DNA of 61,943 bases, counting the filler, from an uncultured bacterium (lineage in GTDB: Bacteria; Hinthialibacterota; Hinthialibacteria; Hinthialibacterales; Hinthialibacteraceae), in NCBI GenBank assembly GCA_964449065.1. It is 9 parts of 9 records of this genome, joined end to end, with 100 filler letters (N's around TTAATTAATTAA, not from the genome) between each part and the next. Parts side by side here need not be neighbours in the genome. Positions count along the whole stretch, not along the records: positions 27,790 to 34,612 come from CAYVAZ010000288.1; 8 more parts are not named here. One strand, 5' to 3'. A model generated the notes under the pieces. The model saw only the letters and a list, made by a program, of their open reading frames with translations, was not told the DNA's origin and did not search any database. This document shows, in pieces, positions 4,406-41,508 of this stretch. The translations under genes and the position numbers were made by a program. Each line of letters starts with the position of its first letter. Position 1 is the stretch's first letter.

Positions 4406-4512
4406 TAGTACTGTGTCAACGATTTGATGACGGGCATCAATCCCCCTAGCCCCCCATAACAAGGGGGGAACAACGGATAGCCGGTTGTCATTTTTTGATT
4501 GACAAACTACTA
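4406..4512 (+). mobile_element. MITE family D, complete 107-bp copy
   Basis: Ends TAGTACTGTGTCAA and TTGACAAACTACTA are inverted repeats; internal CCCCCC-ATAACAA-GGGGGG hairpin; homologue at 20654-20750 on the opposite strand. Confidence 0.8.
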
Positions 4513-7122: not shown

Positions 7123-9384
7123 ATGAGAAAGTTGAGTATTTTTATCGTTTTGGGCATGTTAATTTGCATACAAGTGCAGGCCATTGACCGCGATGGTTTA
7201 GTGGGAGAATGGACCTTTGACGACGGCACGGGTACGGATACCACCGGCAACGGCAACGATAGTTCCGGCGATGCCACGAATGTGGAAGGGATATCCGGCC
7301 GGGCAATGGAATTTGACGGCTCGCAGGGAATGGCGATCGATGCCTTCAGTGATGATTTTGTCTTTGATCAAGGCTTTTCGCTTGAAGTATGGGTGAACCC
7401 GCAAGCCGGTTCGCAAACCATGGTACGCAAAGGCGGGGCGGCGAACTTTTTGATCGAATTGGGTGTAGGCAGAACCAATGATCCCGGTACAACACCACAG
7501 TTCGGTTTCGCGACCGACCAAGTCGGTATTGGTGCCAGCATTGTGACAGGAGATGATCCGCTGCCGTTAGACCGGTGGAGCATGGTTTCCATGACGTACG
7601 ACGGCAGTGTTTTGCGCGGATACGTAAATGGGGAATTGATCGCGGAAAATCCGGTGACCGGCAGCGCGTTGAATGATACTTCACAACCGTTGTTGTTCGG
7701 AAATTTTGGCAGCGAAATCTTTATCGGCGTTTTGGATGAAATCCGAATCTGGAACAAGCCGCTTTCGCAGGAACAGATATTGAACGACTTTGAAGAATTC
7801 GCGCCGAATCTCAACACGAATATCGTTGGAGAATGGTTGTTTGAGGGGGATACCAATGATTCCAGCGGAGAAGGCAATGACGCGACGAATAACGGCGGCA
7901 CCTTTGTTCCCGGTTTGAATGGTGAAGCGATTCACTTTGAAGGCACCCATGCCGTGGTGGAATCGTTCAGCGACGGGTTTGTGTTTGAGGATGAATTTTC
8001 GCTTTCGTTGTGGGTAAAGCCGCAGGGCGGTTCGCAAACAATGATCCGGAAAGGCGGATCGGCAAACTTTCTATTGGAATTGGGTGTGGGCAGAACCAAT
8101 GATCCCGGCACAACGCCGCAGTTTGGTTTTGCCACGGATGAAGTGAATATCGGCGCCAGCATTGTAACCGGCAATACCTCGCTGCCGCAGGAACAATGGG
8201 CGCATTTGGCGATGATTTATGACGGACAGAATTTAAAGGGGTATATCAACGGAATTGAGATCGCCAGCAATCCGGTCACCGGGCTTGGAATTAACGACCC
8301 CTCGCAGTTCTTATTTTTCGGTACTTGGGCATCGGAAGTGTTTTTTGGAGAACTGGATGAAATCCGGATATGGAACCGCGCGCTGCGGGTGCGGGAAATC
8401 GAACAGTTGTTCCTAGAGCACGGCGCCAAACCGGACGTATTTCAATTACAGGTTGGCGAGCGTGATTTCAATGACTTATCTTTCACAGCAGGCAGTCCGT
8501 TGGAAGTTCGTATCAAACTGGAAGGACAAGCGGGTGATGTGACGGTTACTGAGACCCCGCCCGCGGGATGGGATGTATCAAACATCAGCAACGGCGGTAC
8601 GCTCAGCGGGGGGGATATTACATGGAATGTGTCCAAACCTGCTGGACTGTTCACGCTGTCTTATACAGTAACACCACCCGGTGATGCTTCCGGCAATGTA
8701 GAATTTTCCGGGCAAACCGGCAGTGATCCGACGGGCGGTTTTACGACCCTGGTGCCGAGTGAACCGATCGGTATATTTGAAAACCATTTGGATGTGGGCG
8801 AAGTGCTGCCGGACGGCGGCAGCGCCGAATTTTCGGATGGCACGTATACCATCGTGGCGAGCGGGCGCGAAATTTGGAACCACATGGATAATTTTCATTT
8901 TGTATACAACCGCACCGATCAGGATTTTGTATTGACATCGTTTGTCGAGACGTTTCCGCTGGAATCGGCACAAGAATGGCTGAAAGCCGGTTTGGTTGTA
9001 CGCGATACTTTAGCACCGAGTTCATCGTATGCGTTGGTTTATGTGCGCAACGATTTGCAAGTCGGGTTTCAATTCCGCCCACGGTCGAGAATCTATCCGA
9101 ACAGAACGGCTACGTTGTTTGGATTTGACGTGCAGGACGGTGTGATTCAGATTGAGCGGAAAGGATCACTCGTAACCGTTCGCCATCGGGATTTAAACAC
9201 AGGTGAGTTTGTGGATATTGATAGCATGGAGATTGAATTGGAGAACCCGGCATACGTTGGATTGGCGGTTTCGGCGGCCCTGCCCAGCGCGGGCGACGGT
9301 TTGGGTGCGGTGGAAGGAACGTTTAGTGATGTGGAGTTTGAAACATCCGAACCGGCTGGCTTGTTGGATTGGTCGATTTATTAA
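7123..9384 (+). CDS. Secreted protein with two LamG-like jelly-roll domains and a C-terminal beta-sandwich region
   Basis: Signal peptide; two LVGEW.F...W.H..MTYDG...Y.NG...F.G.LDEIRIWN.AL domains; GGAGGA RBS. Confidence 0.85.
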   Translation: MRKLSIFIVLGMLICIQVQAIDRDGLVGEWTFDDGTGTDTTGNGNDSSGDATNVEGISGRAMEFDGSQGMAIDAFSDDFVFDQGFSLEVWVNPQAGSQTMVRKGGAANFLIELGVGRTNDPGTTPQFGFATDQVGIGASIVTGDDPLPLDRWSMVSMTYDGSVLRGYVNGELIAENPVTGSALNDTSQPLLFGNFGSEIFIGVLDEIRIWNKPLSQEQILNDFEEFAPNLNTNIVGEWLFEGDTNDSSGEGNDATNNGGTFVPGLNGEAIHFEGTHAVVESFSDGFVFEDEFSLSLWVKPQGGSQTMIRKGGSANFLLELGVGRTNDPGTTPQFGFATDEVNIGASIVTGNTSLPQEQWAHLAMIYDGQNLKGYINGIEIASNPVTGLGINDPSQFLFFGTWASEVFFGELDEIRIWNRALRVREIEQLFLEHGAKPDVFQLQVGERDFNDLSFTAGSPLEVRIKLEGQAGDVTVTETPPAGWDVSNISNGGTLSGGDITWNVSKPAGLFTLSYTVTPPGDASGNVEFSGQTGSDPTGGFTTLVPSEPIGIFENHLDVGEVLPDGGSAEFSDGTYTIVASGREIWNHMDNFHFVYNRTDQDFVLTSFVETFPLESAQEWLKAGLVVRDTLAPSSSYALVYVRNDLQVGFQFRPRSRIYPNRTATLFGFDVQDGVIQIERKGSLVTVRHRDLNTGEFVDIDSMEIELENPAYVGLAVSAALPSAGDGLGAVEGTFSDVEFETSEPAGLLDWSIY

Positions 9385-9432
9385 AGAGTTTTAGGATTGG
9401 ATAGCGGTAGAATCGGTTTATGATTCGTAGCA

Positions 9433-9460
9433 GTAGGGGCACGTTGCAACGTGCCCCTAC
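9433..9460. repeat. Perfect 28-bp GTAG-type REP palindrome
   Basis: GTAGGGGCACGTTGCAACGTGCCCCTAC equals its own reverse complement. Confidence 0.85.
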
Positions 9461-13905: not shown

Positions 13906-14011
13906 AGCCGTAGGCTCCGGGGGATTTTGCGTTGTTGAAAGCGTGCTTCGATCCCCCTTACCCCCCTTAATAAGGGGGGATAACAACAGTCTCTTCGTTG
14001 CGTAACATGAG
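13906..14011 (-). mobile_element. MITE family A shell with alternative cargo (partial)
   Basis: TGCGTAACATGAG at 13999-14011; interior CCCCCCTTAATAAGGGGGG hairpin. Confidence 0.65.
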
Positions 14012-14050
14012 TTAGTAAAGCACTTGCCATCGATATGTTCGTTGTGGGTA

Positions 14051-14577: not shown

Positions 14578-14672
14578 TAGAGTAATTCAGGTTTGCGTAG
14601 AGGTACAATGTATACATTCATTTACCGGCTGGAAGCCGATGCTACCCGGCTATTCAACTTTGAAACGCTCTA
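14578..14672 (+). mobile_element. MITE family B, 95 bp, copy 1
   Basis: TAGAGTAATTCAGG...TGAAACGCTCTA ends; homologous to 16770-16864 and 36595-36689. Confidence 0.85.
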
Positions 14673-16769: not shown

Positions 16770-16864
16770 TATAGCAATTCAGGTTTGTGTAGAGGTACAA
16801 AGCGTACATACAAGTACCATCTGGAAGCTAGTGCTACCCGGCTATTCAACTCCGAAACGCTCTA
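16770..16864 (+). mobile_element. MITE family B, 95 bp, copy 2
   Basis: TATAGCAATTCAGG...CGAAACGCTCTA; colinear with copies 1 and 3. Confidence 0.85.
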
Positions 16865-27448: not shown

Positions 27449-27789
27449 ATTCATTATTGATTTAAAGCGGTTTTATACCATATGCAATTAAGAATGGGGT
27501 GGCTGTCACTTCTTTCGCTGGTGATGCGGCTTAACCAATTTTCGATTGGGTTCGCGAAGTAGTGGAGATCAAAGCGTAACCCAACGACGCTTGATTGTGA
27601 TGAGGCAGATCCCCCCTAGTTAAGAGGGGCTAAGGCAATGTCATTGATTTAAGGTATTAAACTTGAAAACGCAATATCTTCTCCCCCAANNNNNNNNNNN
27701 NNNNNNNNNNNNNNNNNNNNNNNNNNNNNNNNNTTAATTAATTAANNNNNNNNNNNNNNNNNNNNNNNNNNNNNNNNNNNNNNNNNNNN

Positions 27790-28963
27790 TTGCGTTTTCA
27801 CCCCCTTCATGCACGGCAATTTCGATATGCAGCAACTCCCCGCTGCCGCTGGCACCGCCATACGTGCTGGCGTACCCTCTCCCATACACATATAAAACCC
27901 CTTCCCGTTCTGAAAATACCTGCGTATCCACTTTCGGATAACTCATGTTCTGCTTCCACCACTGCCCATACGATACCAGTGGATCCACACGGATCACTGC
28001 TGGATCGTAATGAATTTCTGTTGAGAATGACAACATATTTTCGGCATTTTGTATATTCACGGTTACTTGCTTTTTGGGCCCCAGCGGATCAAGGCGTAAT
28101 TCCGTTTCCTTAAATGAAACCGCTGTATTCCATCCCATTGGAAACCAGAAGGGAGCGGAATCCAACTCCGCCAATTCCATATCGATGGCGGATACCGGTT
28201 GAACCGGAATGCGCGGCGCTCCCCCAACGGAATGCAGGATGCCGTTGGAATCCAATAGGATCATTCCCCTTCCAGAAGGCATGATTTCAAAATCAAGATA
28301 ACGTCCCTGCTCCAGTTTCGGTAGTTCAATTTCGTTGGCCTCTTTCGCATTCGCATCGAACACTTGATAAACCGTTCCGTTTTTAGTCAGAACAAAAAAC
28401 GTACGACGATATTGTTCTAAATCAATTGCCTCATCCCGGGATAAGTTTACTGTACGGTTCCATTCGGATTCGCTTGGTCCGCATATCGTGATATGTCCGT
28501 TTGATAGCAACACCGCCAATTGCTTGAGAACCGGGTCATACTCCACATCGCGAATCGGATAAGTAAAGGCGGGAACAACCAAGGATGGAGCCATGCCAAT
28601 GGATTTGATATAGTTTTGTGTGGCAACCCAACCACCATTGCCATTGGGAAGCAATGCCATCCCTACCGCGACATCCTTGTGCAGCATCCCCGATGAAATT
28701 CGAGCTTTGCCCACCGGAAACAACATGCCATTGCCCAGCAATTGTCCCCCGCCTTTTTGCGTCAATTCGAAATCGATGATACCGGGCAGGGGGGAATTCA
28801 ATACCGGCCGGACCATCAGGGTTTCCATCGCGGTTTGATCTAGCGAAATGTCTAAACCCGTGATTCCGCCCCATTGATCCTGCAAAATTAAAATCGGCTT
28901 GGATTGCGCGGCAGTAAATATCCAAATGCTGAGAATGATAGAAAAAAGAATTCGCAAAAACAT
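27790..28963 (-). CDS. Secreted beta-propeller-like protein with cohesin-like domain, 3'-truncated
   Basis: Signal peptide; repeated A.D.E...G...L...G blades; V.VNI.NA.N..SF...I.YDP...SGSGEL. Confidence 0.7.
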
Positions 28964-29025
28964 AAATTTAACTCAACCCGAAACCGTACCGATATTAGAG
29001 AGATATTTTTACAAAGGATTATAAC

Positions 29026-29673
29026 GTGACACGCCTGAATTATACACCGCTTTTCATCATTCCCCTCCTCGTGTGTATGTTAAGCGCATCCGCTTCTGAC
29101 CGGGTTACTTTATTGCATGGGGATATCTTTATCGGCGATCAGCTGCAATTCAATAACGCCCGCTACCTACACGACCGCTTCGGATTTCGAACCAGCACCC
29201 CCTATTGGTTTGTGAGAGAAATCGAAGAAAATGTAAATCAGTTGGAATTAACCTCGACCCAAACCGGCAATGTAACAACAGATACGCTGCGAGTCTTCGG
29301 TGACCGCATCCTATCCGTCACGTCCGATATCCCCATGGAAACCAGCAACTTGGAACTCCACCCCTGGCGCTCCGATCACTGGATCGCCGCCGAGCGCTTC
29401 ATCCGCGGCTATATCGCCAACCGTTCCAGTGAAGGGTACAACGTCTTACACGCATCCATGGTCTTTTACGGCACAGCCCCTGCCCTGCCCCCCAACCAAA
29501 CGCCTAGACAAGTACGCCTGCTGGAAGAAAAAATCACCGTCTTCAAACTCTACCCCCACACCATGAAACCCTTCTTGGTCGACGCATGGCACGTACCCTG
29601 GGATCAAGTGGAATCCATTCGGGTGGTCAAAACCGGAGAGTCATTGATGGTCCGCAAACACTTCAGTCCGTAA
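29026..29673 (+). CDS. Hypothetical secreted protein (FxLYD-like C-terminal domain)
   Basis: Signal peptide; IRGYIAN.S...Y.......VFY. Confidence 0.6.
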   Translation: MTRLNYTPLFIIPLLVCMLSASASDRVTLLHGDIFIGDQLQFNNARYLHDRFGFRTSTPYWFVREIEENVNQLELTSTQTGNVTTDTLRVFGDRILSVTSDIPMETSNLELHPWRSDHWIAAERFIRGYIANRSSEGYNVLHASMVFYGTAPALPPNQTPRQVRLLEEKITVFKLYPHTMKPFLVDAWHVPWDQVESIRVVKTGESLMVRKHFSP

Positions 29674-29683
29674 CCGAAGAGAT

Positions 29684-29935
29684 TTAAACCGCCTCAAACT
29701 TACGGGGTACTAAACGAACGTGAATATCTAAATTGCGGTCAAATAAATCTGCTGTTTTTCTTAAAAAAGACAAATACTCGCCTTCATATCCTCCCTGTTC
29801 AATCAATTCCAGCGTTTCAGAAGAAATTCCAAGCATTTCAGACAACTCATCTTGCTTCATTTCCGCTTCTTCACGCGTTTGATATATAGCTTCCCCAACA
29901 TGAATGCCGAAATGTGTTTCCTCCAATAGAGCCAA
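29684..29935 (-). CDS. XRE/HigA-like HTH protein, possibly 5'-damaged
   Basis: IY..R..A...Q.EL...LG.S......E...Y.G..L..LR; frame extends to an in-frame TGA at 29987-29989. Confidence 0.65.
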   Translation of the reverse strand: MALLEETHFGIHVGEAIYQTREEAEMKQDELSEMLGISSETLELIEQGGYEGEYLSFLRKTADLFDRNLDIHVRLVPRKFEAV

Positions 29936-29999
29936 ACATTCCGGGTCGTTTTTGATGTTATTCAGGCGGAACGATTTTTTCTTTCTTCAAACCATGTGT

Positions 30000-30106
30000 T
30001 AGCGCATTTCAGAGTTGGATAGACAGAATCTGCCGTTATTTCCCACCTTATTAAGGGGGGGATCAAAGACGATCTCTTTCTATCTACACAAACCTGAATT
30101 GCTCTA
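30000..30106 (-). mobile_element. MITE family B shell with different cargo (107 bp)
   Basis: Minus strand: TAGAGCAATTCAGGTTTGTGTAGA...CTATCCAACTCTGAAATGCGCTA; interior CCCCCCCTTAATAAGGTGGG. Confidence 0.85.
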
Positions 30107-30213
30107 ATGTAAAGTTTCGTATTACCACCTTCAAGATAACCAACCTTTATTCTCAAAGCAGATTACATTTAACTCCATTATTTTGCAAACATTTCACAAC
30201 TAGTGAGGATGTA

Positions 30214-30525
30214 TTACAGGAACACAGGCAAGACCGGCAGTTCGGTGGTGTTCCGAAGAATCCAGCGCCTCAACATGTTTCGCGCTTGGTACCATTCCCT
30301 GCAGGGGTGCTGAGACGAGTTTTTTCGGATTTCGCGTCTCAATTCATGTTGAGATTTCATGGAATTTTGGCGAGATTCTATCCGCCTGGATTGTTCCCTA
30401 TAACTGCCGCAATCGAAAAAGGGGCGCCCCGATTTCACAATAATTAAAAAAACAAAAGAAAGAAAACAAAAGATAAAAGGTAACAGGTTAGCGGTGTGAA
30501 GTAAAAAATCAAAAAAAGGTTCCAT
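30214..30525 (-). CDS. Hypothetical small membrane protein
   Basis: ORF with N-terminal TM and GGAGGA upstream, but that RBS-like motif lies in a repeat hairpin. Confidence 0.35.
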   Translation of the reverse strand: MEPFFDFLLHTANLLPFIFCFLSFVFLIIVKSGRPFFDCGSYREQSRRIESRQNSMKSQHELRREIRKNSSQHPCREWYQARNMLRRWILRNTTELPVLPVFL

Positions 30526-30606
30526 ATTCCTCCCCCAATGCAATGGGATGAGGTTAGGAGAGGGTTAAGACACTCTCTTACAAAACCGGATGAGGAATAA
30601 TTACTT

Positions 30607-31614
30607 TTACTGTATCTCCCCATTCTCAATCCGTTTGGTCATCTCATCAATCACCTGCTGGCGGGCTTCTTCCACCGTGCCGTGCAGCAACGCGCCCGCC
30701 GCCCGTTGATGCCCTCCTCCCCCAAACTTGTTGGCAGAGATGGCAATATTGTTATTCCCTTTTCCGCGCCAACTGACTTTCACGCGCTTGTCCGCCTCTT
30801 CCCGCAAATAGATTCCCACACTTACCCCTTCAATCGTACGCACTAAATCAGAAAACCCTTCGTCTTCCATCACATCCGCGCCGCTCTCTTTTATCATATC
30901 CAGCGACGTATGCATCACCGCCAGTTTGCCGTCACAATACACCTTCAAATTTTCAAACGCCATCGACATCAAACGCAGCCGGGCAAAGCGGGTCGTCCCA
31001 AACACCGGATCATAAACGTGTGTTGGCTGCACACCGGCCTCTAGGCATCTCGCGGCAATACGATGAGACTCAACAGTGGTATTGGGCAAATGAAAATTCT
31101 GCGTATCGACAATCAACCCCAGATAAATGGGCTCAGCAATATCCAGTGTAAGTTCCATCTCCAAATGTTCCAAAAAATGATAAATCAAAACGGTCGTCGA
31201 TGGCGCCGATGTATCCACCAAGCGAACCCCGGAAAATGAATCATGCGGCGGGTGGTGATCAATACAAATCTTCGCTCCGGGATGCGCTTGAAATACTTTA
31301 CCCACATCGCCCAATCGTTTCCACAATCCCGCGTCCGTCATGATCAATGCGTGACGGTCGCTTAAATCCGGTGGATTGGATTCAAAATCAATCACTTCAC
31401 CATTGTGCAAAAACGGATGAAACGAAGGGCCGAGTTTTTTCTCCAAAATAAAAAGAACATCTTTGCCGCGTTTTTCTAATATCCGCTTGAGCGCCAATCC
31501 GGACCCGACTGCATCCCCATCCGGATTGATATGGCTGGAAATCGCGAAACGCGCGTGTTGATCAATAACGGATTGAATCTCATCCCAACTGCCTTGCTGT
31601 ATATGCTCAGACAC
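30607..31614 (-). CDS. nrnA: DHH/DHHA1 phosphoesterase (bifunctional oligoribonuclease/pAp phosphatase)
   Basis: H.NPDGDA.GS, IDHH, DT..F, GGGGH..AAG. Confidence 0.92.
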   Translation of the reverse strand: MSEHIQQGSWDEIQSVIDQHARFAISSHINPDGDAVGSGLALKRILEKRGKDVLFILEKKLGPSFHPFLHNGEVIDFESNPPDLSDRHALIMTDAGLWKRLGDVGKVFQAHPGAKICIDHHPPHDSFSGVRLVDTSAPSTTVLIYHFLEHLEMELTLDIAEPIYLGLIVDTQNFHLPNTTVESHRIAARCLEAGVQPTHVYDPVFGTTRFARLRLMSMAFENLKVYCDGKLAVMHTSLDMIKESGADVMEDEGFSDLVRTIEGVSVGIYLREEADKRVKVSWRGKGNNNIAISANKFGGGGHQRAAGALLHGTVEEARQQVIDEMTKRIENGEIQ

Positions 31615-31710
31615 AAGTATTCTCCACTTCGGTAGTCATGATGAGAATTCTAATGGAATTACCCATCGCGGAAAGGTTTAACAAAATAACTCTGGATACC
31701 ATTGTTCACT

Positions 31711-34608
31711 TTAAAACGAAAAATAAATCGCTTTTGGCGGGATAATTTGCTCCGGAAGATTCTGCTTCGGCCCCACGACTTTCCGTCGATCATCCAAATT
31801 CAAATACATATTCATTGCTCCCTGCTTGCTCACAAACACCCGGTTGGTCTCCCCATCCGCGGCCGTGCTGAACTTGAATCGGGGATCCAGCAAATCAGGA
31901 TGAGCCATCACCGTGCTAAGCAGTTCCATAAACATCCAATTGTTTACATGCTCTTGCGGCATCACTAATGTGATGCCGCGTCCCGTCTCCCGCAAAAACG
32001 AAGTCCGCAATAATTCCCGCTCAAATTGAGGGGTATTCGGTGCCTGCCCTCTTACGGTCCTGTTTTGAATTTGCCCATTCACAGGCAGCAGCGCAATCCG
32101 GCTGACCGCCATCGTTACCGGAAATGATCGGGTCGCCCCCAACACCTGTCCGGCGCTCCACTCTTGCCCGCGAAGATGGATTTCCACATCCCGGTTTCTA
32201 GGTCGCTGCGCGCCGGTTAATTCCCTCTTCCACTTCACTTCACCGGAACCGTCAATCGTCCCCACGTTTCGGCCGCCAACATACACATCCACCGGATGGT
32301 CTTTCGCCGCGTATCCGTCAATCTGCAATTCATAATCCCGCCCGGGTATCATCGGAAGCGTGGCCTTGGCATTTTCACGAAACCACCGGAACGAATCGAA
32401 TTCAAATCCGTAAAAATTTGCCGTGCTCTCTCCCTCCGGCGCGCTCCATTTCCCTTCCAAAAACGGCTGATCCATACCGGTGCCGATTTGAATATTCCGC
32501 CTATCCGCCGGTTGAATCGGCTCTCCTTCGGTTAATTGGGCATCTTTTGATCTGGGCACAATCGTCCATACACCATTGCGTTGTTCCAACTTCCCGGCAA
32601 ACAATTGTTCATTGATTGTGCGGTCACCCTGCGGACTTTGCCACGCTTGATCCATGTGAACAATCAAAGCGCTGCCTCCCCGGGCAAGCCGTTCAAATTG
32701 TTGAAACGTTTCACTCCGCCAAACATGCCCTACTGGCACAATCACAATTGGATATTGAGATGGATTTATGTATTGCAGTTCCAATTCATCCACCACATCA
32801 AAATCAAAGCGCTCGCGCAAATCGCTCACAATCCGGCTGAATTCCTGGTCATCGGTATGCGAAACGGCTGTCCGCGGAAACACCACAACCGCGTTGCGGT
32901 TCGGCAACGTAGACCGCAGCGCATTTGTTGATTTGGAATACAAATCCCACGCGTCTTTTGGTTGCAACGCCGCTTCATGAAATTGAAGAATTCTTCCTCC
33001 CTCACTGGCCATCGAATACATCCCGCTCATCACCGATGTGCTCGAATACTGTCCGGTGAGATGCAATCCAAACGGAACCCCCAATATCCGGGCGGAACGC
33101 GCCATCATCAGCCAGGTATACAAACGCGTTGGGGTTTCTTCCCGGCTCGTCATCACCAGCGAACTCCCCGATTGCGATGCCAATGCTGCTACCGTTGAAT
33201 AATCCGTAGCGGTATACAAATACCGGTCGCCGACCTCTATAGCAATTTTCGCCTGCGGAAAATAGTTCTTGGCGGATTGTACGATGTTCGCCATCAATCG
33301 GGTAAGCGATTGCTGATACCATACCAACATATCCGCTTTCGCGGCCGCATTGGGGTCTGTCGATGCAATCAGGACTGCCTCATCCCATGAGCCTAGCCGT
33401 CTCCCCCATGCCGATGCTATCCGCGATAACGTTCCGTATTGACTGCTTAAATGCCGGGCTAGGCTTCGTTGCGCAAGAGGATCCCCAATCCAAAAATCCG
33501 GATACCCGCCGCTTTGTTCTGTCGAGAGCAGCAATGGCCCCCAGTCGCCGGCAAAAGAAAGCATGAGTTGATTAATATTCACACCGCCTGATTTCCGCTT
33601 CAGTTGGATAAACATATCCGTATACAACCGCGGTAAGGCCGGCTCCCATAACGAGATCATTGGTCCTGTACTTTTGTTGTTAACCGAAACAGCGCGCTGC
33701 ATTTGATCTATGGCATTTGAAGGGATCTGATGCACGTTGCCGATTGAAAACCGGGGCACCCAATGAATCCCTTGCTGCTGAATCAATTCCGCCCGCTGCA
33801 TAACCGGGTTTTTCTCTCCCGGCGGATCATCCTGATACAATTCGGTAACATCAAATGTCTCAATAAGCGATTGCACTCCCCACGAGCGGTACAACTTCAT
33901 CTTGCTTTGGAGGAATGAAACATCACTCTCGATCTCTTTTGCTTCGTTCGCATTGATGTGAATGGCAAACGAATACCCCGGCGGCACCGAAACCGTTGGC
34001 TGGCGGAAATCATCAAACTGCTTATGCTTGGGTTGGGAAAACGGAACCCGCGTAACCGCCACCTGCCGGATCAAAATATCCGGACAATGAAGTTTGAAAT
34101 CACTTTCGTTCTCAAACAGGTGGTCGAAAAACGCGTCTTCCAATTGAAACGTATGCCGCTCCCAAAACCCGCTGTTGCCTAGAAATATACGCTGCGATTG
34201 CAGTACCGGCTCAGCCTCTTCATCCTCACGCTGGTAATACTCCAACTCCAATGCGCTTTTGCCCGCATCCAAATACTGCACGGATACATAAAACGTTCCC
34301 GTTGTGGTGATCAACTGATCGGTCGCCACCTGAAAATACAGCGATGGCTTCTTCGAATCCGCCCCCGGCTTTACCCCGCGTGATCCGAGTTGAACATCTT
34401 CTTCATACGTCACGCCATCCGGATTGTTCATCTGCAGCGCTTGCGTATATAATGGGCGGGTAAACGAGACATACGCCGCAACCCGCCCGTCCTTCAACAT
34501 TCGCGGAACCACCCGCTTTTGCTGCGGTTGATCTTGGGCTTCAACCACCGTGGAAGCCGTCAATATGAATAACGCGATCAATAAAAAAGAGGCGATTTTG
34601 TTCAACAT
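31711..34608 (-). CDS. Large secreted GH42/GH14-like multidomain protein
   Basis: Signal peptide; N-terminal jelly-roll; D.W.GDP.A......L...YGT......AWG; trimerisation-domain-like FD.V.E region. Confidence 0.55.
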   Translation of the reverse strand: MLNKIASFLLIALFILTASTVVEAQDQPQQKRVVPRMLKDGRVAAYVSFTRPLYTQALQMNNPDGVTYEEDVQLGSRGVKPGADSKKPSLYFQVATDQLITTTGTFYVSVQYLDAGKSALELEYYQREDEEAEPVLQSQRIFLGNSGFWERHTFQLEDAFFDHLFENESDFKLHCPDILIRQVAVTRVPFSQPKHKQFDDFRQPTVSVPPGYSFAIHINANEAKEIESDVSFLQSKMKLYRSWGVQSLIETFDVTELYQDDPPGEKNPVMQRAELIQQQGIHWVPRFSIGNVHQIPSNAIDQMQRAVSVNNKSTGPMISLWEPALPRLYTDMFIQLKRKSGGVNINQLMLSFAGDWGPLLLSTEQSGGYPDFWIGDPLAQRSLARHLSSQYGTLSRIASAWGRRLGSWDEAVLIASTDPNAAAKADMLVWYQQSLTRLMANIVQSAKNYFPQAKIAIEVGDRYLYTATDYSTVAALASQSGSSLVMTSREETPTRLYTWLMMARSARILGVPFGLHLTGQYSSTSVMSGMYSMASEGGRILQFHEAALQPKDAWDLYSKSTNALRSTLPNRNAVVVFPRTAVSHTDDQEFSRIVSDLRERFDFDVVDELELQYINPSQYPIVIVPVGHVWRSETFQQFERLARGGSALIVHMDQAWQSPQGDRTINEQLFAGKLEQRNGVWTIVPRSKDAQLTEGEPIQPADRRNIQIGTGMDQPFLEGKWSAPEGESTANFYGFEFDSFRWFRENAKATLPMIPGRDYELQIDGYAAKDHPVDVYVGGRNVGTIDGSGEVKWKRELTGAQRPRNRDVEIHLRGQEWSAGQVLGATRSFPVTMAVSRIALLPVNGQIQNRTVRGQAPNTPQFERELLRTSFLRETGRGITLVMPQEHVNNWMFMELLSTVMAHPDLLDPRFKFSTAADGETNRVFVSKQGAMNMYLNLDDRRKVVGPKQNLPEQIIPPKAIYFSF

Positions 34609-34712
34609 GAGANNNNNNNNNNNNNNNNNNNNNNNNNNNNNNNNNNNNNNNNNNNNTTAATTAATTAANNNNNNNNNNNNNNNNNNNNNNNNNNNNNNNN
34701 NNNNNNNNNNNN

Positions 34713-35875
34713 AATCCGGCAAAACCTTTTCCGGCCACATGTTCATCGATGCCACTTATGAAGGCGATCTGATGGCCAAAGCCGGCGTCTCTTACCATGT
34801 TGGCAGAGAGGCGAATTCCGTTTACAACGAAACCCTCAATGGTGTGCAAACCATTCTCTTTAGACAATATAATGATGGATTACGTGCCCGCAACATGCAA
34901 AATCACAATTTCCGCAATCCGGTCGATCCATTCATCATTCCCGGCGTGCCATCCAGTGGATTATTGCCGGGGGTGCAAGACGGCCCTCCCGGTGATTACA
35001 GTTCTGGAGACCACCGCGTGCAGGCCTATAACTTCCGTATTTGCATGACGGATGCCGAAGAAAACAAACGCCCGTTCCCTAAGCCCGCGGGGTACAACAC
35101 AATGCGGTATGAACTCTTGTTGCGTTACATCAAAACCGGTGTGTTTGATGTTCTCAATTTAAGCACCCCCATGCCAAACCGTAAAACCGATACCAATAAC
35201 AAAGGGGCTTTCTCTAGCGATAATATCGGCATGAACTACGACTATCCTGATGGTGACTACGAAACACGCGAACGGATCTTTCAGGATCACGTTACCTACC
35301 AGCAAGGCATGATGTGGTTTTTATCCAATGACCCGCGCGTGCCGGACGATGTGCGAAATAAAGTCCGCCGCTGGGGATTGGCGAAAGACGAATTTACCGA
35401 TCACGGCAACTGGCCGCATCAATTGTATGTCCGTGAAGCCCGCCGGATGATTTCCGATGTTGTCATGACCGAGCACCACTGCCGCGGCCATAAGGTAGTA
35501 GAAGACGTTGTAGGATTGGCTGCTTACGGGATGGATTCGCACAACGTACAGCGCTATGAAACCGGTGGAATTGTTTTAAATGAAGGCAATGTTGAAGCGC
35601 ATCCATTGTCGCCCTATGCGGTGTCATACCGCTCCATTCGTCCCAAGCGTGAGGAATGCAAAAACCTGCTTGTGCCGGTATGTGTATCGTCATCACACAT
35701 CGCGTTCGGTTCCATTCGCATGGAACCGGTCTTTATGGTTCTGGGACAATCCGCGGCAACCGCGGCCTGCTTGGCTATCGATGACGGAATTGCCGTGCAG
35801 GATGTGGACTACAAAAAACTCCGCAAGAACCTGATTACGGATAAGCAGGTTTTAAAATGGGAATCGACTGAATAA
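34713..35875 (+). CDS. FAD-dependent oxidoreductase (FAD_oxidored family), 5'-truncated
   Basis: FIDATYEGDLMA.AGV.Y.VGRE, QAYNFR.C.T, YVREARRM, SHIAFGSIRMEPV. Confidence 0.92.
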
Positions 35876-36145
35876 CTCATGTTACGCACTACATTATGAT
35901 AGACCCGTTTTTCTAATCGTTCGCTGAATCTGTCGCCCTCGCCCACTGGGAGAGGGACGGGGTGAGGGTTCGGGAGGAATAAACCTCTATTTACGCGACT
36001 GCGTCATAAGGAGCAATCGCTCTCATCGCCCTCATCTCTTATCTTCTCCCAAAGGGAGAAGGCGATAGTCGTACTGAAAATTAAAGGACTTTCAATAGAC
36101 CTCAATTTCAACATGAACTTTCTATTCCCTTTTGCGTAACATCAG
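35876..36145 (+). mobile_element. MITE family A, complete 270-bp copy
   Basis: 13-bp TIRs CTCATGTTACGCA / TGCGTAACATCAG (1 mismatch); begins right after a TAA stop; no ORF. Confidence 0.88.
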
Positions 36146-36164
36146 TTTATAAGATACATTATCT

Positions 36165-36545
36165 TTATGAAACAATAGCAATGGCATCCATTTCTACCGC
36201 GACACCTTTTGGCAATGCCGCCGCTTGGATGCATGCCCGCGCGGGTTTGCTGACTCCAAAGTACTCTTCATAAAGATCGTTTAATACCGTAAAGTTATTA
36301 ATATCATCCAAATAGATTGTTACCTTTACCGTATCTTCCAGCGAGGAACCGGATGATTCCAGCATCATTTTCAGGTTATCCAGCGTTTGCCGCGCCTGCG
36401 CTTCGAACGATCCCGTCTCGATGGAGCCGTCATTTTTCATCGGAATCTGTCCGGACACAAACACAAAGCTGTTCGCAACCACGGCAGGAGAATAAGGCCC
36501 CACGGGAGCAGGGCCGTTTGGTGGAGAGACCAGTTTTTTATCCAT
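36165..36545 (-). CDS. ridA: RidA/YjgF-family reactive intermediate deaminase
   Basis: GPYS.A, SGQIP, VKVTIYL, PARAC, LPKG..VE.DAIA. Confidence 0.93.
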   Translation of the reverse strand: MDKKLVSPPNGPAPVGPYSPAVVANSFVFVSGQIPMKNDGSIETGSFEAQARQTLDNLKMMLESSGSSLEDTVKVTIYLDDINNFTVLNDLYEEYFGVSKPARACIQAAALPKGVAVEMDAIAIVS

Positions 36546-36594
36546 AATCACCCTCTTATACGAAATAATACCATTTCCAATTTGGATTGTTAAC

Positions 36595-36689
36595 TAGAGC
36601 AATTCAGGTTTGCGTAGAGGTACAACGTGTACATCCATGTACCGGCTTGAAGCCGATGCCACCCGGCTATTCAACTCTAAAACGCTCTA
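36595..36689 (+). mobile_element. MITE family B, 95 bp, copy 3
   Basis: cTAGAGCAATTCAGG...CTAAAACGCTCTAg. Confidence 0.88.
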
Positions 36690-36709
36690 GCATATATGAT
36701 TCTTAAATC

Positions 36710-36739
36710 AAAAGAAACAGCCCGGATCACTCCGGGCTG
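36710..36739 (-). terminator. Rho-independent terminator of the 549-aa gene
   Basis: CAGCCCGGA-4 nt-TCCGGGCTG stem followed by TTTCTTTT on the minus strand. Confidence 0.75.
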
Positions 36740-36768
36740 ATTTCAGTTTACCCTATCAAAAAGAAAGG

Positions 36769-38418
36769 CTAATTGTAAGTAGGCGTTAAAACCTGCGTCT
36801 TTAAATAATCCGGCAGGATGCAGATGGTTTCGCCATGCTGTCCGATTGCCCGGTATGCCCCATTCAAAATCTCCAACACATCCTGCACCTTTCGTTGTGA
36901 GGGAAAAAGAGTCTTGTTTTTCAAGCAGTTCTTTTTCAGTTGATCTTTTGACATACACAGCCCGTTTTCGCAAAACTGTTCGTAGATGAAGAATAGTTGC
37001 TTGCGGGTATCGGTATCGGTTTCGTAATCCAATACCTCGCGCAGGGGGATCAACGCTTGCCGGCGTTCTTCTTCGCTCAGTTGCTCGTTGTTTTCGCGAA
37101 CAAAGGCGGTTTCCGCCACCGCGACCGCTTTGCGTAAATCGCGGATGAAGTCTTTTTTGCTCAACGCGCGCTTGCTTAGTTTTTGACGCGACAGGCCATA
37201 TTCCAGCGCCTTGCGCAGTACGTTGATTTTAATCTCAAAGCCCCACTGTTCTTCATAAATGCGGGCATAATTTTGCTTCAAAAAGTTAATCGTCTTCTTC
37301 ATGTGTTCCAAGGAATGATTTTTACGCGTTCGGGCATATTGTTCCGCGGTTTTGCGGGTAATGCCTTCTTCTTCCATTAAATATTGCACCATTTGTTCCT
37401 CCGCTTCACTGGAGGCTTTTCCGGCTCGTCGCATGAGCTTAGCAATCGTTCGTTTTCCTCCCATTAAGTCTGATATGGCAATTTTGCCATTCGATAATTT
37501 CAGTAGATTCTGCATCGTCTGATAGGTAGCCCGTGCTGAGATGTATTTAATTTGCTCGGGTGATGCCCCCAATTTTTTGAGCAATTCTTTGCGGCTTTCA
37601 TAATCCATATAACGCTGTTTCGTGCGTTTGAGTTGATCACGCAGCCTTGCCAAGTTTGCTTTCATCCGGTTCGGCTCAATAAAGCCCAGTTCCTTTTGCA
37701 GTAAAGAGGCTTTTTTCTTCAGCATTTCCAAACTGGATTGGCTCACGAGAAACTCGAGATCCGATTCTAAAAACATTGGGCAAACCATATTTGAATCGGC
37801 CAGTTTTTCCAGGTATTCGTATTTTTCACGCCGTTCAACATGCCAAAGATTGCCGCGTTCAGCTCTCGCTTTGGACCGCGCATCAATTTTAGACGATGAC
37901 AAGGATAATTCGTTGACGCGCACAAAGGCTTTGTTGGAAATATAATAGTTTAATTTTTGCTGAAACCGCTCAAGAGATTTTCTCGTTGGCAAATCTTCCA
38001 AGTTCCACGCTTTTCGTATCTTGATAAGACCGTCTTCCCCTTCCATCGCGCAATTCCGCACGAATTGCAAATGAGATGCCAATAGAAAATCAGCGAGATA
38101 CTCCCGGATATGTCTGCCGATTCGTCTAAACCATTCTTCCATACGCGGATTTTCTTCAACCAGTTTTTCTTCCACTTTAAAAACTGTATTCAGCACATCT
38201 TTCGCGTCTTCATCATCCAACACAGGATGGGGCAATGAGAGAGGATTCTCTTGAAAATATGTGGTAACAATTTTTTGAGATTGATCGTATTTTGTAAAAT
38301 CCTGTCCTTTGGCGGCTTTCATGGCCTTCTCAATGTCAGGTACAAGAGATTGCCAACGGTTCGTTGCATCACCAAAATGTAAGGAATATTCAATATTGTG
38401 TTCTTGAACATGGGCCAT
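36769..38418 (-). CDS. Hypothetical 549-aa basic, helical cytoplasmic protein
   Basis: Long ORF, GGAGGA RBS, own terminator; no family recognised. Confidence 0.8.
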   Translation of the reverse strand: MAHVQEHNIEYSLHFGDATNRWQSLVPDIEKAMKAAKGQDFTKYDQSQKIVTTYFQENPLSLPHPVLDDEDAKDVLNTVFKVEEKLVEENPRMEEWFRRIGRHIREYLADFLLASHLQFVRNCAMEGEDGLIKIRKAWNLEDLPTRKSLERFQQKLNYYISNKAFVRVNELSLSSSKIDARSKARAERGNLWHVERREKYEYLEKLADSNMVCPMFLESDLEFLVSQSSLEMLKKKASLLQKELGFIEPNRMKANLARLRDQLKRTKQRYMDYESRKELLKKLGASPEQIKYISARATYQTMQNLLKLSNGKIAISDLMGGKRTIAKLMRRAGKASSEAEEQMVQYLMEEEGITRKTAEQYARTRKNHSLEHMKKTINFLKQNYARIYEEQWGFEIKINVLRKALEYGLSRQKLSKRALSKKDFIRDLRKAVAVAETAFVRENNEQLSEEERRQALIPLREVLDYETDTDTRKQLFFIYEQFCENGLCMSKDQLKKNCLKNKTLFPSQRKVQDVLEILNGAYRAIGQHGETICILPDYLKTQVLTPTYN

Positions 38419-38775
38419 GAGATAATGTCCTCCAGTTTAAAAGTGATTAGGACTATGGTTAAGATGTTATTATGACTCAAATTGTCATATTTAGATTATA
38501 CCATCTGGTGAGATGATTTGTCAACAATTTTAAGCAAAAAGTATGAACTATTTTTCTGAACAAGGCCTGGATAAACCCGCTTTAAAATAAATAAATCCAA
38601 AATCCTCTTATTTTCTAAGTTACGGTATACCAACACGATAAGTAACGCTAAAATTCGATTCGCATTTCAAAAAAAATGCTGTGTCACTTGAAAAATACAA
38701 AAAAAAGAGCTATTTGTATAATGTAGAAAAATTATATTCGTTTGTTTGCAATTGAGAGATAGAAAGGCTTTTTCA

Positions 38776-39111
38776 ATGGATATGAATGTTCGTCAAGAAT
38801 CTGACACTGCAATCGTTACGCTTGAGGGAAAGATGGACTGGCGCTCATTATCCGACTTTTCCGGTTCGATTGTACAATTGGTCGATTCCGGGACAAAGAA
38901 TATCCTTCTCGACTTCTCGAAAATGGAATACATGAGCAGTGCGGGTATTCGGGCATTGATTGAAGCCATGCAAAATGTTGAAAGCAAAGGCGGAAAACTG
39001 GCAATTTGCTCTCCCGGCAAATCAATTATGGAACTGTTTCAAGTCGTTCAGTTGGAAAAGATTATCCGTATTTACAAGACAGAATGGGATGCCTTAAATG
39101 AATTAATGTAA
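38776..39111 (+). CDS. STAS-domain anti-sigma-factor antagonist
   Basis: L.G.MD, ILLDFS.MEYMSSAGIRAL phosphorylatable Ser motif. Confidence 0.93.
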   Translation: MDMNVRQESDTAIVTLEGKMDWRSLSDFSGSIVQLVDSGTKNILLDFSKMEYMSSAGIRALIEAMQNVESKGGKLAICSPGKSIMELFQVVQLEKIIRIYKTEWDALNELM

Positions 39112-39150
39112 GTCTATTTATATCAATATATTATATCAAAAGAGTTTTTC

Positions 39151-41007
39151 ATGGATGAGCGTCATGAATCAACTTGGCAGGATATACGCCGCATCACTCC
39201 CAATTATCTGAATACCAACTTAGATACTCTCTCAACCAAACACCCTCATATTCATGAAGCACTACAAACTTCTTTACATCATCTCCATATAGAATTGCAT
39301 AGAACCGAACATACCCCAACACAAGCGGCAGAATTAATTGAAGACCGGTCCATGGTGTTTTATGATACACTTGACCTGCAAAAAGAATTCAGGCGGGTTC
39401 AACGATTTTCCCAACAACTTACACCGGCACCGCAAACCCAACTCTACTTTATTTTAGGATTCGATCTTGGATTTACCCTAACCCAACTCATCCGCTTTAT
39501 TTCACAATCAACTCGATCCGCTTTCGTGGTAATAGAGCCGGATATCCGCATGGCAGCCTGCACATTCGCGACGCAAGATATGACCCATTTCCTGCAATCC
39601 AACCGGATCGATTTTGTAGTGGGAAAGGATTATCTTTCCCAGTTGGATACCGTATTCGAGCAAAGAAACTATTTCGCCCTCCCGGAAATTAAAGTGGTTG
39701 CATCAACGACAGCCCATCTGCCGCGGTACGCGGACGAGTGGACACGGCTGAAGGACACCACATCTCATTTGCAGAAAAAATATCAACATCACTTTCAAAC
39801 AGAACTGGAAGAAACCCGGCAGTTCTATCAAAACAAACCGTGTCATCCCATTCAAACCATGCTCTCGCTCGTCCAAACCGGGGGATTGGCCGTCCGTTTC
39901 ATCCAACAGCGCTTCTTGACTGAATGCCAAAAACAAGGCGTTGAGATCATGAACTATCAACCCGGTTTTGCCAATGAAATCGGCATTCTACGAACCATAC
40001 ACCGCTATAAACCGGACTGCCTGCTCTTCATCAACCGCTCGCCCGGAGAGTATGTCAGTACCGATGTACTCAACACAATCCATATTCCCCGAATGGTTTG
40101 GTGCGTGGACGACCCCAACAGTTTTATCAAAGAGTCTTTCCACCGCAATGATATCGTTTTCACTTGGGATGATTCATACGCGGAAGATATGAAACGGAAA
40201 GGGGCTTATAATGTCGATCACTTTCCTTATGTTGCCGACTTGGATCAAGTGAACGCAAACGTGAGAGAAGACTTCCTGAGCCCGGTTAGTTATGTCGGCC
40301 AAGTGAAAGCCTTTCATCCGCAAGAATTAGGTTTGGATGACCCCACTGCTGCATTGGTCAAGCACGTCGCACGGGAGAAAAGCAAAAATCCGCTTGAACC
40401 CTACCAAAACTTAATCCTTGAGAACCAAGATTCATTCGGACTGCGTATTCTGAATGAGGGAACTGATGATGTACCCCGCTATGTTCGGTACAGCATTTAT
40501 CTGGTTGCCAACGCGTTGCGAAGAATCAGGATATTGGAAACCGCAATGCCGTTTGGGTTAAAAATCTATGGGGGGACCGACTGGCTTGAGGTTCTTGGAG
40601 ACCACCCTCTCAAAGATTGCTATTGCGGCTTGGCCGATCCGCAAACCGATGTGCCCGATATATTTTTATCCAGCAAAATCAATCTAAACATCCACAGTTT
40701 GCAAGCGCTTACCAGTTTAAACCAACGTGATTTCAATTGTCCGCTTGTTGGGGGATTTCTACTGACTGACTGGGTCGAAAAAGCGGATGCATTCTTCATT
40801 CCTGGGAAAGAACTCATGTTTTATCATGACACCGAAGATTTGAAGGGGAAAATTGCCTATTTTCTGAACCATGAAGAAGAGCGAAAAGACATCATCGAAC
40901 GGGGGAAAAGACGTGTTATGAAAGATCACACGTACGCCTCAAGAGTTCCCAAGGTAATCGATACCTTAAACCAAAGAATCCAAGAACAGATGTATAGTGA
41001 TGCGTAA
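39151..41007 (+). CDS. Glycosyltransferase (CgeB/YkvP-like C-terminus, Maf-like N-terminus)
   Basis: ILGF.LG...VIEPD; SKINLNIH..LNQR.F.....GGFLLTD...EER..I...G..RV...HTY..R. Confidence 0.8.
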   Translation: MDERHESTWQDIRRITPNYLNTNLDTLSTKHPHIHEALQTSLHHLHIELHRTEHTPTQAAELIEDRSMVFYDTLDLQKEFRRVQRFSQQLTPAPQTQLYFILGFDLGFTLTQLIRFISQSTRSAFVVIEPDIRMAACTFATQDMTHFLQSNRIDFVVGKDYLSQLDTVFEQRNYFALPEIKVVASTTAHLPRYADEWTRLKDTTSHLQKKYQHHFQTELEETRQFYQNKPCHPIQTMLSLVQTGGLAVRFIQQRFLTECQKQGVEIMNYQPGFANEIGILRTIHRYKPDCLLFINRSPGEYVSTDVLNTIHIPRMVWCVDDPNSFIKESFHRNDIVFTWDDSYAEDMKRKGAYNVDHFPYVADLDQVNANVREDFLSPVSYVGQVKAFHPQELGLDDPTAALVKHVAREKSKNPLEPYQNLILENQDSFGLRILNEGTDDVPRYVRYSIYLVANALRRIRILETAMPFGLKIYGGTDWLEVLGDHPLKDCYCGLADPQTDVPDIFLSSKINLNIHSLQALTSLNQRDFNCPLVGGFLLTDWVEKADAFFIPGKELMFYHDTEDLKGKIAYFLNHEEERKDIIERGKRRVMKDHTYASRVPKVIDTLNQRIQEQMYSDA

Positions 41008-41047
41008 TGTTTTTATACCGCTTCAATGAAATAATATGCGTTGTGCT

Positions 41048-41095
41048 GTACCGGCTGGAAGCCGATGCTCCCCGGCTTTTCAACTCTGAAATGCT
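41048..41095 (+). mobile_element. Partial MITE family B (right half)
   Basis: GTACCGGCTGGAAGCCGATGCTCCCCGGCTTTTCAACTCTGAAATGCT. Confidence 0.7.
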
Positions 41096-41187
41096 GTTGA
41101 AGGCATGTAAACGCGTCATACTTTATCCGCGAATGGATGCTGATGAAAACAAAAACCGAATAGCGGCATTTTTATAATTTTGTAAAT

Positions 41188-41508
41188 TTATGGCCGGCAG
41201 TTTTCGAGCGCGACTTCTAAGGCCCAGCTGGTAAAGGCGGCGTAATTAAAATCTTTGTAGCGTCCGCCCGCTGCGTCTCCTTTGTTTTTCTCCAGCACTT
41301 CTTTCATGACCGGTACGAGCGGGCAGGCTTGTTTGCCGATCAGTTGGATGGTTCGCGCTGCGTAAAGGGAGACCCAAGGCCGGTTATCCAAAACATTGCG
41401 TTTGAGTGCCCGCAGCGCTTTGTTTTCATAATCGAGTTTACAAAGCACTTCCGCGCTGGCAATCTGTACGCTGGGAGAATCATCATCCAAATGTTCCACC
41501 AAATGCGG
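41188..41508 (-). CDS. C-terminal HEAT-repeat fragment (5'-truncated; possibly a sulfatase tail)
   Basis: L.DDSPSVQIASAE.L; D..PWV.L.AA..I. Confidence 0.65.
   Translation of the reverse strand, partial: PHLVEHLDDDSPSVQIASAEVLCKLDYENKALRALKRNVLDNRPWVSLYAARTIQLIGKQACPLVPVMKEVLEKNKGDAAGGRYKDFNYAAFTSWALEVALENCRP

Follow-up and report, generated by a model that had tools for sequence, protein, structure and literature searches.

The window analysed here is 61,943 nucleotides long and consists of nine contigs (C284-C292) of the genome studied (G000; GCA_964449065.1), concatenated with N spacers, from a short-read assembly of 5.2 Mb in 515 contigs that is 86.7% complete. On C288, between a gene for an NrnA-like phosphoesterase and a small helix-turn-helix gene, lies a short element that combines a shell, i.e. 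a pair of terminal inverted repeats (here shell B), with a hairpin cargo (Table 1). It is 7 bp shorter than the consensus of its family, one C-run unit being gone, and loose ends of Logan contigs (two runs of one study) fall exactly at 29999/30000 and 30106/30107. The original prediction had described four shell-B elements in the window, and their coordinates and sequences are as it gave them: the 107-bp element and the three 95-bp elements have both ends of about 24 bp in common and interiors that could not be aligned, and the C-run hairpin is also present inside shells D and A. No match was obtained in an Rfam search of positions 27790-41508 or in a plasmid blastn search with the element, and no RNA dataset was among the matches listed in a Logan search with it.

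Table 1. Repeat elements in the window and parts of the element at 30000-30106
Feature	Position	Strand	Remarks
Shell-B MITE with C-run hairpin cargo	30000..30106	-	107 bp including both TA target copies; family consensus 114 bp
Left terminal inverted repeat, 24 bp including TA	30083..30106	-	Consensus shared with the 95-bp family; identical to the left end of the IS630 L043 over its first 11 bases
Left linker, family-specific	30065..30082	-	Seen solely behind shell-B left ends
Common core: GAT, C-run hairpin (30042-30061), AACAACG-like tail	30034..30064	-	BoxC/triplex-type; second C-run absent here
Right linker	30024..30033	-	Its end also found in the 106-bp GTAG-REP family; complementary in part to the left linker
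Right terminal inverted repeat	30000..30023	-	IS630 right-end type
Shell-B MITE with GTAG/GGAG-tagged REP	14578..14672	+	95 bp; REP on the minus strand, about 14625-14645
Shell-B MITE with degenerate copy of the GTAG/GGAG REP	16770..16864	+	95 bp
Shell-B MITE with the GTAG/GGAG REP of the 14578 element	36595..36689	+	95 bp
Mixed-end hybrid with a REP core between shell-H (left) and shell-B (right) ends	41013..41098	+	One of three 86-bp H/B hybrids genome-wide
Shell-D MITE (CTAG-targeting) with C-run core	4406..4512	+	
Shell-D MITE with C-run core, cut by contig end	20654..20750	-	
Shell-A element, right part; C-run core is half of an inverted hairpin doublet	13906..14014	+	Cut by contig start
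Shell-A element carrying a BoxC-type doublet as a different cargo	35873..36148	+	Shell A thus has two cargos

Elsewhere in the window, positions 9382-9457 hold a decayed shell-B-like end followed by a variant of a GTAG REP known from a RAYT gene (C273). Two 222-bp copies with 76% identity are found at 7345-7566 and 7966-8187, spaced by 621 bp, and the high-GC contig at 48442-55146 contains numerous short repeats, which we take to be those typical of an RHS/YD-repeat protein gene.

Shell B proved to be abundant in G000. Its 24-nt end pattern, allowing up to two mismatches, gave 240 matches compared with none for the reversed control, so these ends are not there by chance, and paired 24-bp ends enclosed 100 elements of 71-439 bp, with length modes of 95, 106 and 114 bp. 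A GTAG/GGAG (CCGG) REP occupied 39 of these interiors, the C-run hairpin 28, a second GTAG REP 26 and other sequences 7. The possibility raised with the original prediction, that each shell has essentially one interior and that the copy at 30000 is a lone chimera, is contradicted by these counts. The three families had only their ends in common, with linkers and end variants specific to each cargo. Compared with the other two families, the 106-bp family has the inner halves of its left and right ends swapped (shell-B end consensus), as if the interior had been inverted via recombination between the ends. Across all shells, 198 of the 212 simple elements were located outside long ORFs. At -8 kcal/mol, hairpins were found in 98 of 150 interiors, compared with 22 flanks and 21 random windows (150 of each; copies not independent), and 32 of 64 clusters passed this threshold, singletons and decayed copies included. 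A hairpin as a general requirement was rejected, since two shell-B families of genome G007 contained no strong one. Two GTAG-led hairpins had originally been read in the 95-bp family; the second is a REP and its stem is perfect in 21 of 30 copies, whereas the first, with a 5-bp stem perfect in 6 of 30, is not, its GTAG lying inside the terminal repeat and being present too in the end of an autonomous IS630 (L043).

An exact scan of the genome collection with the shell-B ends gave five loci, of which four were lone ends and one (L043) was an intact 1052-bp IS630 (NCBIfam NF033545, E 4.7e-44) with ISRm2011-2-like relatives, from a distant Alphaproteobacterium. L043 agrees with shell-B copies in 23 of 24 bases at the right end and with the shell-B left end in the first 11 bases, and the inner halves of both shell-B ends resemble the IS630 right end. 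The base preceding the TA was Y in 148 of 162 readings at shell-B flanks (YTAR) and C in 53 of 64 at shell-D flanks (CTAG); a CTAG preference of IS630 is stated by a title in the reference list of PMC2170065, and that paper gives 24-bp repeats as the likely minimum for ISY100 of the IS630 family. Single-TA empty sites within other repeats were found for shell B (C282:4318, C297:120) and shell D (C65:14598, C86:1007), clean cases picked by eye among the matches listed, in which at least 76 joined-flank matches were mostly self or neighbour matches. No orthologous empty allele was found in the shallow contigs of two runs, and shell B showed no enrichment next to other repeats (14 of 81, compared with 1957 of 11848 intergenic YTAR sites). 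As judged from the sequences, shell B is an IS630-type MITE with TA duplication; of the IS630/IS5-like transposase originally suggested, the L043 ends and the TA duplication uphold IS630 and not IS5. A classical internal-deletion MITE was rejected as its origin: when the whole of L043 was searched against G000 by blastn, its interior was without a match among the top matches listed, which comprised the terminal 24-42 bases and one 26-base match at chance level.

An autonomous IS630 with similar ends is represented by L043 in its distant host, and none was found in G000. Neither IS630 (PF13358) nor IS701 (PF13546) gave a match in this assembly (86.7% complete, 515 contigs), six DDE_Tnp_1 loci in G000 showed no convincing shell end, and shell-B ends were absent from all 30 IS630 loci of the phylum that were examined. 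Among metagenome contigs, 8 of 11 loci were examined and no transposase was seen by eye among their long ORFs. For shells A, C and D, plasmid blastn returned only hairpin or chance matches in place of an autonomous partner, and pattern searches of the phylum for shell partners returned only further MITEs or lone ends. An IS630 with ends like those of shell F was present in the relative G013.

The modular combination of shells and cargos, proposed from the window, was borne out genome-wide once the matrix had been built for several shells and several cargos. Shell B contained three cargos in G000, shell D the C-run core and a GGGAG-led REP, shell A two doublets, shell H two cargos, shell G two REPs, shell C at least four interiors and shell E one doublet type; five shells besides B thus had at least two cargos each. 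Around the C-run core, the arm pairs were B/B (26), D/D (79), A-type/A (19), B/D (3) and D/B (3). In the three H/B hybrids of 86 bp the switch point is in the CCGG REP, and B/D, D/B, H/B, G/B, H/G and A/D hybrids each switch within a core common to their partners. Families with matched ends have between 17 and 79 members, located at unrelated TA sites; counts of free-standing cores, which loose patterns had inflated, were left aside. Of 40 other genomes searched, 3 had the shell-B end pattern; in two of these (G007, G013), as in metagenome contigs, the ends were filled with other interiors, and so were the ends of shells D and C in other genera. A junction at the REP tag, the position of which was to be checked according to the original prediction, was seen only in shell G, where two different REPs (8 and 6 two-armed copies) of near-equal length join a common arm at the GGAG tag and have the far arm in common as well, but not in shell B, where only the ends are common and no linkers are shared. 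No empty shell B was found, and no shell-B element in G000 was shorter than 71 bp. A joint of left to right ends at C91 was not counted as an empty shell, because its middle was not resolved.

The REP/RAYT reading of the cargos applies to part of them: genuine REPs ride in the shells, whereas the cargo of the element at 30000 is not a RAYT REP. A GTAG-type tag is absent from both this element and its family consensus, and with no tag at the hairpin foot a RAYT-associated REP could be ruled out. The C-run consensus instead has two stem arms around a short loop, followed by a 3-nt linker and a third G-tract. It fits the BoxC/triplex layout (PMC4666352), with the copy at 30000 being without the third tract. 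On the strength of its primary structure, the C-run cargo is a BoxC/triplex-type hairpin, of which the family consensus may form a triplex. Near-identical C-run hairpins were found in cyanobacterial plasmids. Hairpins of the BoxC class occurred within 250 bases of 15 of 18 DUF559 genes of the phylum (the strong matches among 30 loci fetched) compared with 1 of 47 control loci, with a hairpin pattern that was written after viewing DUF559 loci and thus leans towards them; by the same pattern, 6 of 8 plasmid DUF559 genes from other phyla had such a hairpin. At L108, the DUF559 gene is bracketed by a C-run pair.

Several of these DUF559 genes have further features. DUF559 domains lie in long open frames at L108:1114-2400 (G029), L089 and L106 (428, 1121 and 529 aa), and at L108 both hairpins, like the domain, are in frame within a larger protein. 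In G000, a DUF559 gene with inverted BoxC-type hairpins on both sides (L040:853-1851; C459) is fused in frame to a prepilin/pseudopilin gene, and upstream of this fusion a second gene begins with an identical hairpin and leader.

The cargos of the 95-bp and 106-bp families have both a tag and a GC-rich hairpin. Among 164 copies of the CCGG REP, the tag was GTAG in 69 and GGAG in 66; their contexts agree in two G bases (96% each) immediately 5' of the tag, and on the 3' side longer, variable flanks are common to them. The second GTAG REP, that of the 106-bp family, had gone unnoticed in the original prediction; it has the "double foot" form, which PMC6006769 assigns to RAYT subclass 2.4. A close variant of it lies in frame inside a RAYT gene of G000 (C273; NF047646, E 3.3e-20, below the cut-off). 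In G000, the search for a RAYT gene with flanking copies of the CCGG REP found none, and a sibling REP of the CCGG type flanks a Y1 gene in G026. No CT/CA cut site was prominent by eye at the tag-side junctions of the two shell-B REP families.

The RAYT gene with the in-frame REP (L003:82-1034, G000 C273) has a shell-A element upstream along with small genes that are presumably DUF433-like and antitoxin-like, and downstream of it a REP is interrupted by a nest of shell C, shell C and shell B. In G026, the REP-flanked Y1 transposase domain is part of a 584-aa frame (L138). A repeated GGGGTC-led sequence flanks another Y1 gene in G000 (L001, C189:600-900), which is truncated and preceded by a fragment that, from its motif, we assume to be the end of an ISAzo13 transposase.

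Nesting provides a view of how new pairs arise. Shell D or C was found inside shell B at C48, C155, C83, C91 and C92. Conversely, in four complete shell-C elements an entire shell-B element of 106 bp took the place of the interior typical of the 134-bp C type. Its junctions both coincided with TA sites of that C type; all four copies had one derived base of the B end in common and were located at three different target duplications of about 10 bp. Insertion with adjacent deletion, followed by copying by the outer shell, would explain these elements. Two loci (C6:35152-35487 and C222:6002-6335 in G000) have a four-level nest of shell E, C, B and REP at the same position in E, on which account the whole stack was probably copied. 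Shell C adjoined G/C runs at 29 of 33 sites, compared with 16% of random windows, and a clean 10-bp duplication was seen in only 12 of 33 shell-C pairs. MITEs of this CAATG-ended kind, with duplications of about 10 bp and positions beside G/C-run hairpins (e.g., 27636-27650 in the window), were found in 15 of 35 phylum genomes. For the birth of the three shell-B families neither an intermediate nor a donor was found. The left linker of the C-run family gave 46 matches classed as behind shell-B left ends and 7 others, namely three shell-B variants and four without repeat context; it was otherwise found nowhere in G000. Single births with subsequent amplification would fit the shell-B families, because only the ends are common, the end variants are cargo-specific and the linker is seen nowhere else. 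Most shell-cargo pairs look as if they were born once and then copied.

Combined with the above analysis, the element at 30000 probably belongs to a family of non-coding MITEs with IS630 ends, moved in trans with TA duplication, in which the interior hairpin was captured once and then copied along. An IS630 transposase acting in trans and needing only the two 24-bp ends would likely move the element, and the hairpin would likely have come a single time from another repeat class. The formation of new pairs would be a rare event: an element would insert into another one, whose interior would then disappear through adjacent or slippage deletion; only products retaining both ends could spread, and the homology would thus be trimmed back to the terminal repeats. 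Hairpins common to several families could then serve as crossover points, from which the mixed-end hybrids seen in the sequences may have arisen. The hairpins themselves would derive from two nuclease-linked classes, i.e. the RAYT REPs and the BoxC/triplex hairpins flanking DUF559 genes. They are most likely passengers inside the shells, and hitch-hiking is the best reading for the REPs. Points against this explanation are that no IS630 was found in the incomplete G000 assembly, no shell-B ends at the phylum IS630 loci, no empty allele in the shallow contigs of two runs and no shell-B intermediate or donor, that L043 comes from a distant organism, that the left linker is confined to the C-run family, that shell B is not concentrated near other repeats, that clean duplications are limited to 12 of 33 shell-C pairs, and that the tag junction of shell G is not predicted by random deletion. 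That junction would rather be expected if hairpins were actively cut and pasted into the shells by their own nucleases (RAYT, possibly DUF559), one cargo replacing another, which we consider unlikely. In line with such swapping, the CCGG REP contexts diverge two bases 5' of the tag, G000 has RAYT genes, one with the REP type of the 106-bp family in frame, and RAYTs are described in PMC8266576 as cutting on both the 5' and the 3' side of a REP. However, the shell-B families have no common linker and so no common empty precursor, the shortest shell-B element (71 bp) is by its sequence a deletion product, and neither a prominent CT/CA site nor a RAYT flanked by the CCGG REP was found; the shell G junction is also a GGGAG microhomology, and microhomology explains the tag junctions equally well.

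Host recombination or gene conversion at the common hairpins, with little further transposition, would account for the reciprocal B/D hybrids (three each way) and the H/B, G/B, H/G and A/D hybrids that switch inside the common core, and triplex motifs are tied to local instability in E. coli (PMC4666352). As the main source of the matrix it is nevertheless improbable, because it reshuffles existing arms and is unable to create new end-to-cargo junctions, and because the hybrids are few compared with the matched-end families at their unrelated TA sites. A second end could alternatively have been generated around the hairpin by fold-back template switching that duplicated a single IS end beside it. 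The C-run family does fold as one long imperfect hairpin including its linkers (z = -3.6, consensus fold), and both ends are like the IS630 right end over their inner halves, but the left/right difference of L043 is kept in all three shell-B families and the linkers in the two REP families lack symmetry, so that this origin appears very improbable. ("Adjacent deletion" and "fold-back template switching" are terms of general knowledge.) Chimeras formed between short repeats during assembly are conceivable with short reads and 515 contigs, and none of the listed Logan matches reaches across the 30000 locus into unique sequence on both sides. Yet identical junctions recur in 28 copies at separate loci, and analogous pairs exist in other genomes. 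In independent Logan contigs the boundaries are found again, and one contig of 663 bp runs without differences through a nested C/B junction and on into unique DNA. An artefact of this kind is extremely unlikely as a general explanation, and single hybrids could still be misjoins.

On the preferred explanation of trans-mobilized MITEs with once-captured hairpins, G000 offers a concrete route for the spread of REP and triplex repeats, with DDE-type miniature transposons as carriers and the birth of one pair traceable; REP spread is called poorly understood in PMC8266576. This also bears on the origin of bacterial MITEs with foreign interiors. A closer coupling of shells and hairpins may be imagined, although we regard it as rather doubtful: the central hairpin would be selected for bringing together the ends of an element of about 100 bp, RAYT or DUF559 would reload shells at the tag, the MITEs would be a RAYT-independent vehicle, and DUF559 would be the enzyme of the triplex repeats. 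If true, REPs and BoxC/triplex repeats would spread and change transposase hosts via MITEs.

The published systems closest to these elements are compared here from the portions of the cited papers available to us. ISs of the IS630 family (ISRm2011-2-like; ISY100, PMC2170065) and the MITEs derived from them are similar to shell B in their imperfect 24-bp repeats, TA duplication and YTAR/CTAG targets, and like shell B these MITEs have no coding capacity, one shell-B end being nearly that of an intact IS630. Shell B differs from them in that several unrelated interiors from other repeat classes occur in one end pair and that no transposase remnant is present except for a few possible terminal codons. 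BrickBuilt/MITEPgRS of P. gingivalis (PMC4596501) likewise combine near-identical ends with unrelated interiors holding another repeat and without transposase remnant; however, they have IS5-family ends and a minisatellite cargo, and a cargo common to different shells is not reported in the portion of that paper covered. MIC231 of the Bacillus cereus group (PMC6199540) also has transposase-less ends with varied passengers moved in trans, but differs in its IS4/IS231 ends, length of 0.7-3 kb and protein-coding passengers. "Undescribed system", the wording of the original prediction, is therefore too strong, because MITEs with the same ends and different interiors have been published (PMC4596501, PMC6199540). 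Within a literature search of limited coverage and partial texts, no description was found of REP or triplex hairpins as exchangeable or shared MITE cargo, or of DUF559 genes with hairpin flanks. Two shell-B cargos are tagged hairpins of the kind known from REP/REPIN/BIME with RAYT (PMC3733652, PMC6006769, PMC8266576), and they are unlike these in lying within DDE-type ends and being copied with TA duplication; insertion of ISs into REPs is known (PMC3184786). The C-run consensus shares stem, loop, stem and third G-tract with the BoxC/PIT/TM triplex repeats (PMC4666352), and whereas the pages available on the E. coli triplex motif link it to no transposon, the C-run class here is found inside MITEs and flanking DUF559 genes. 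All of the parts belong to known kinds; what is of value is the clean shell-by-cargo record, together with the tests that it allows. This is an under-described variant of known mobile DNA, in which tiny transposons have likely picked up and spread other selfish repeats.
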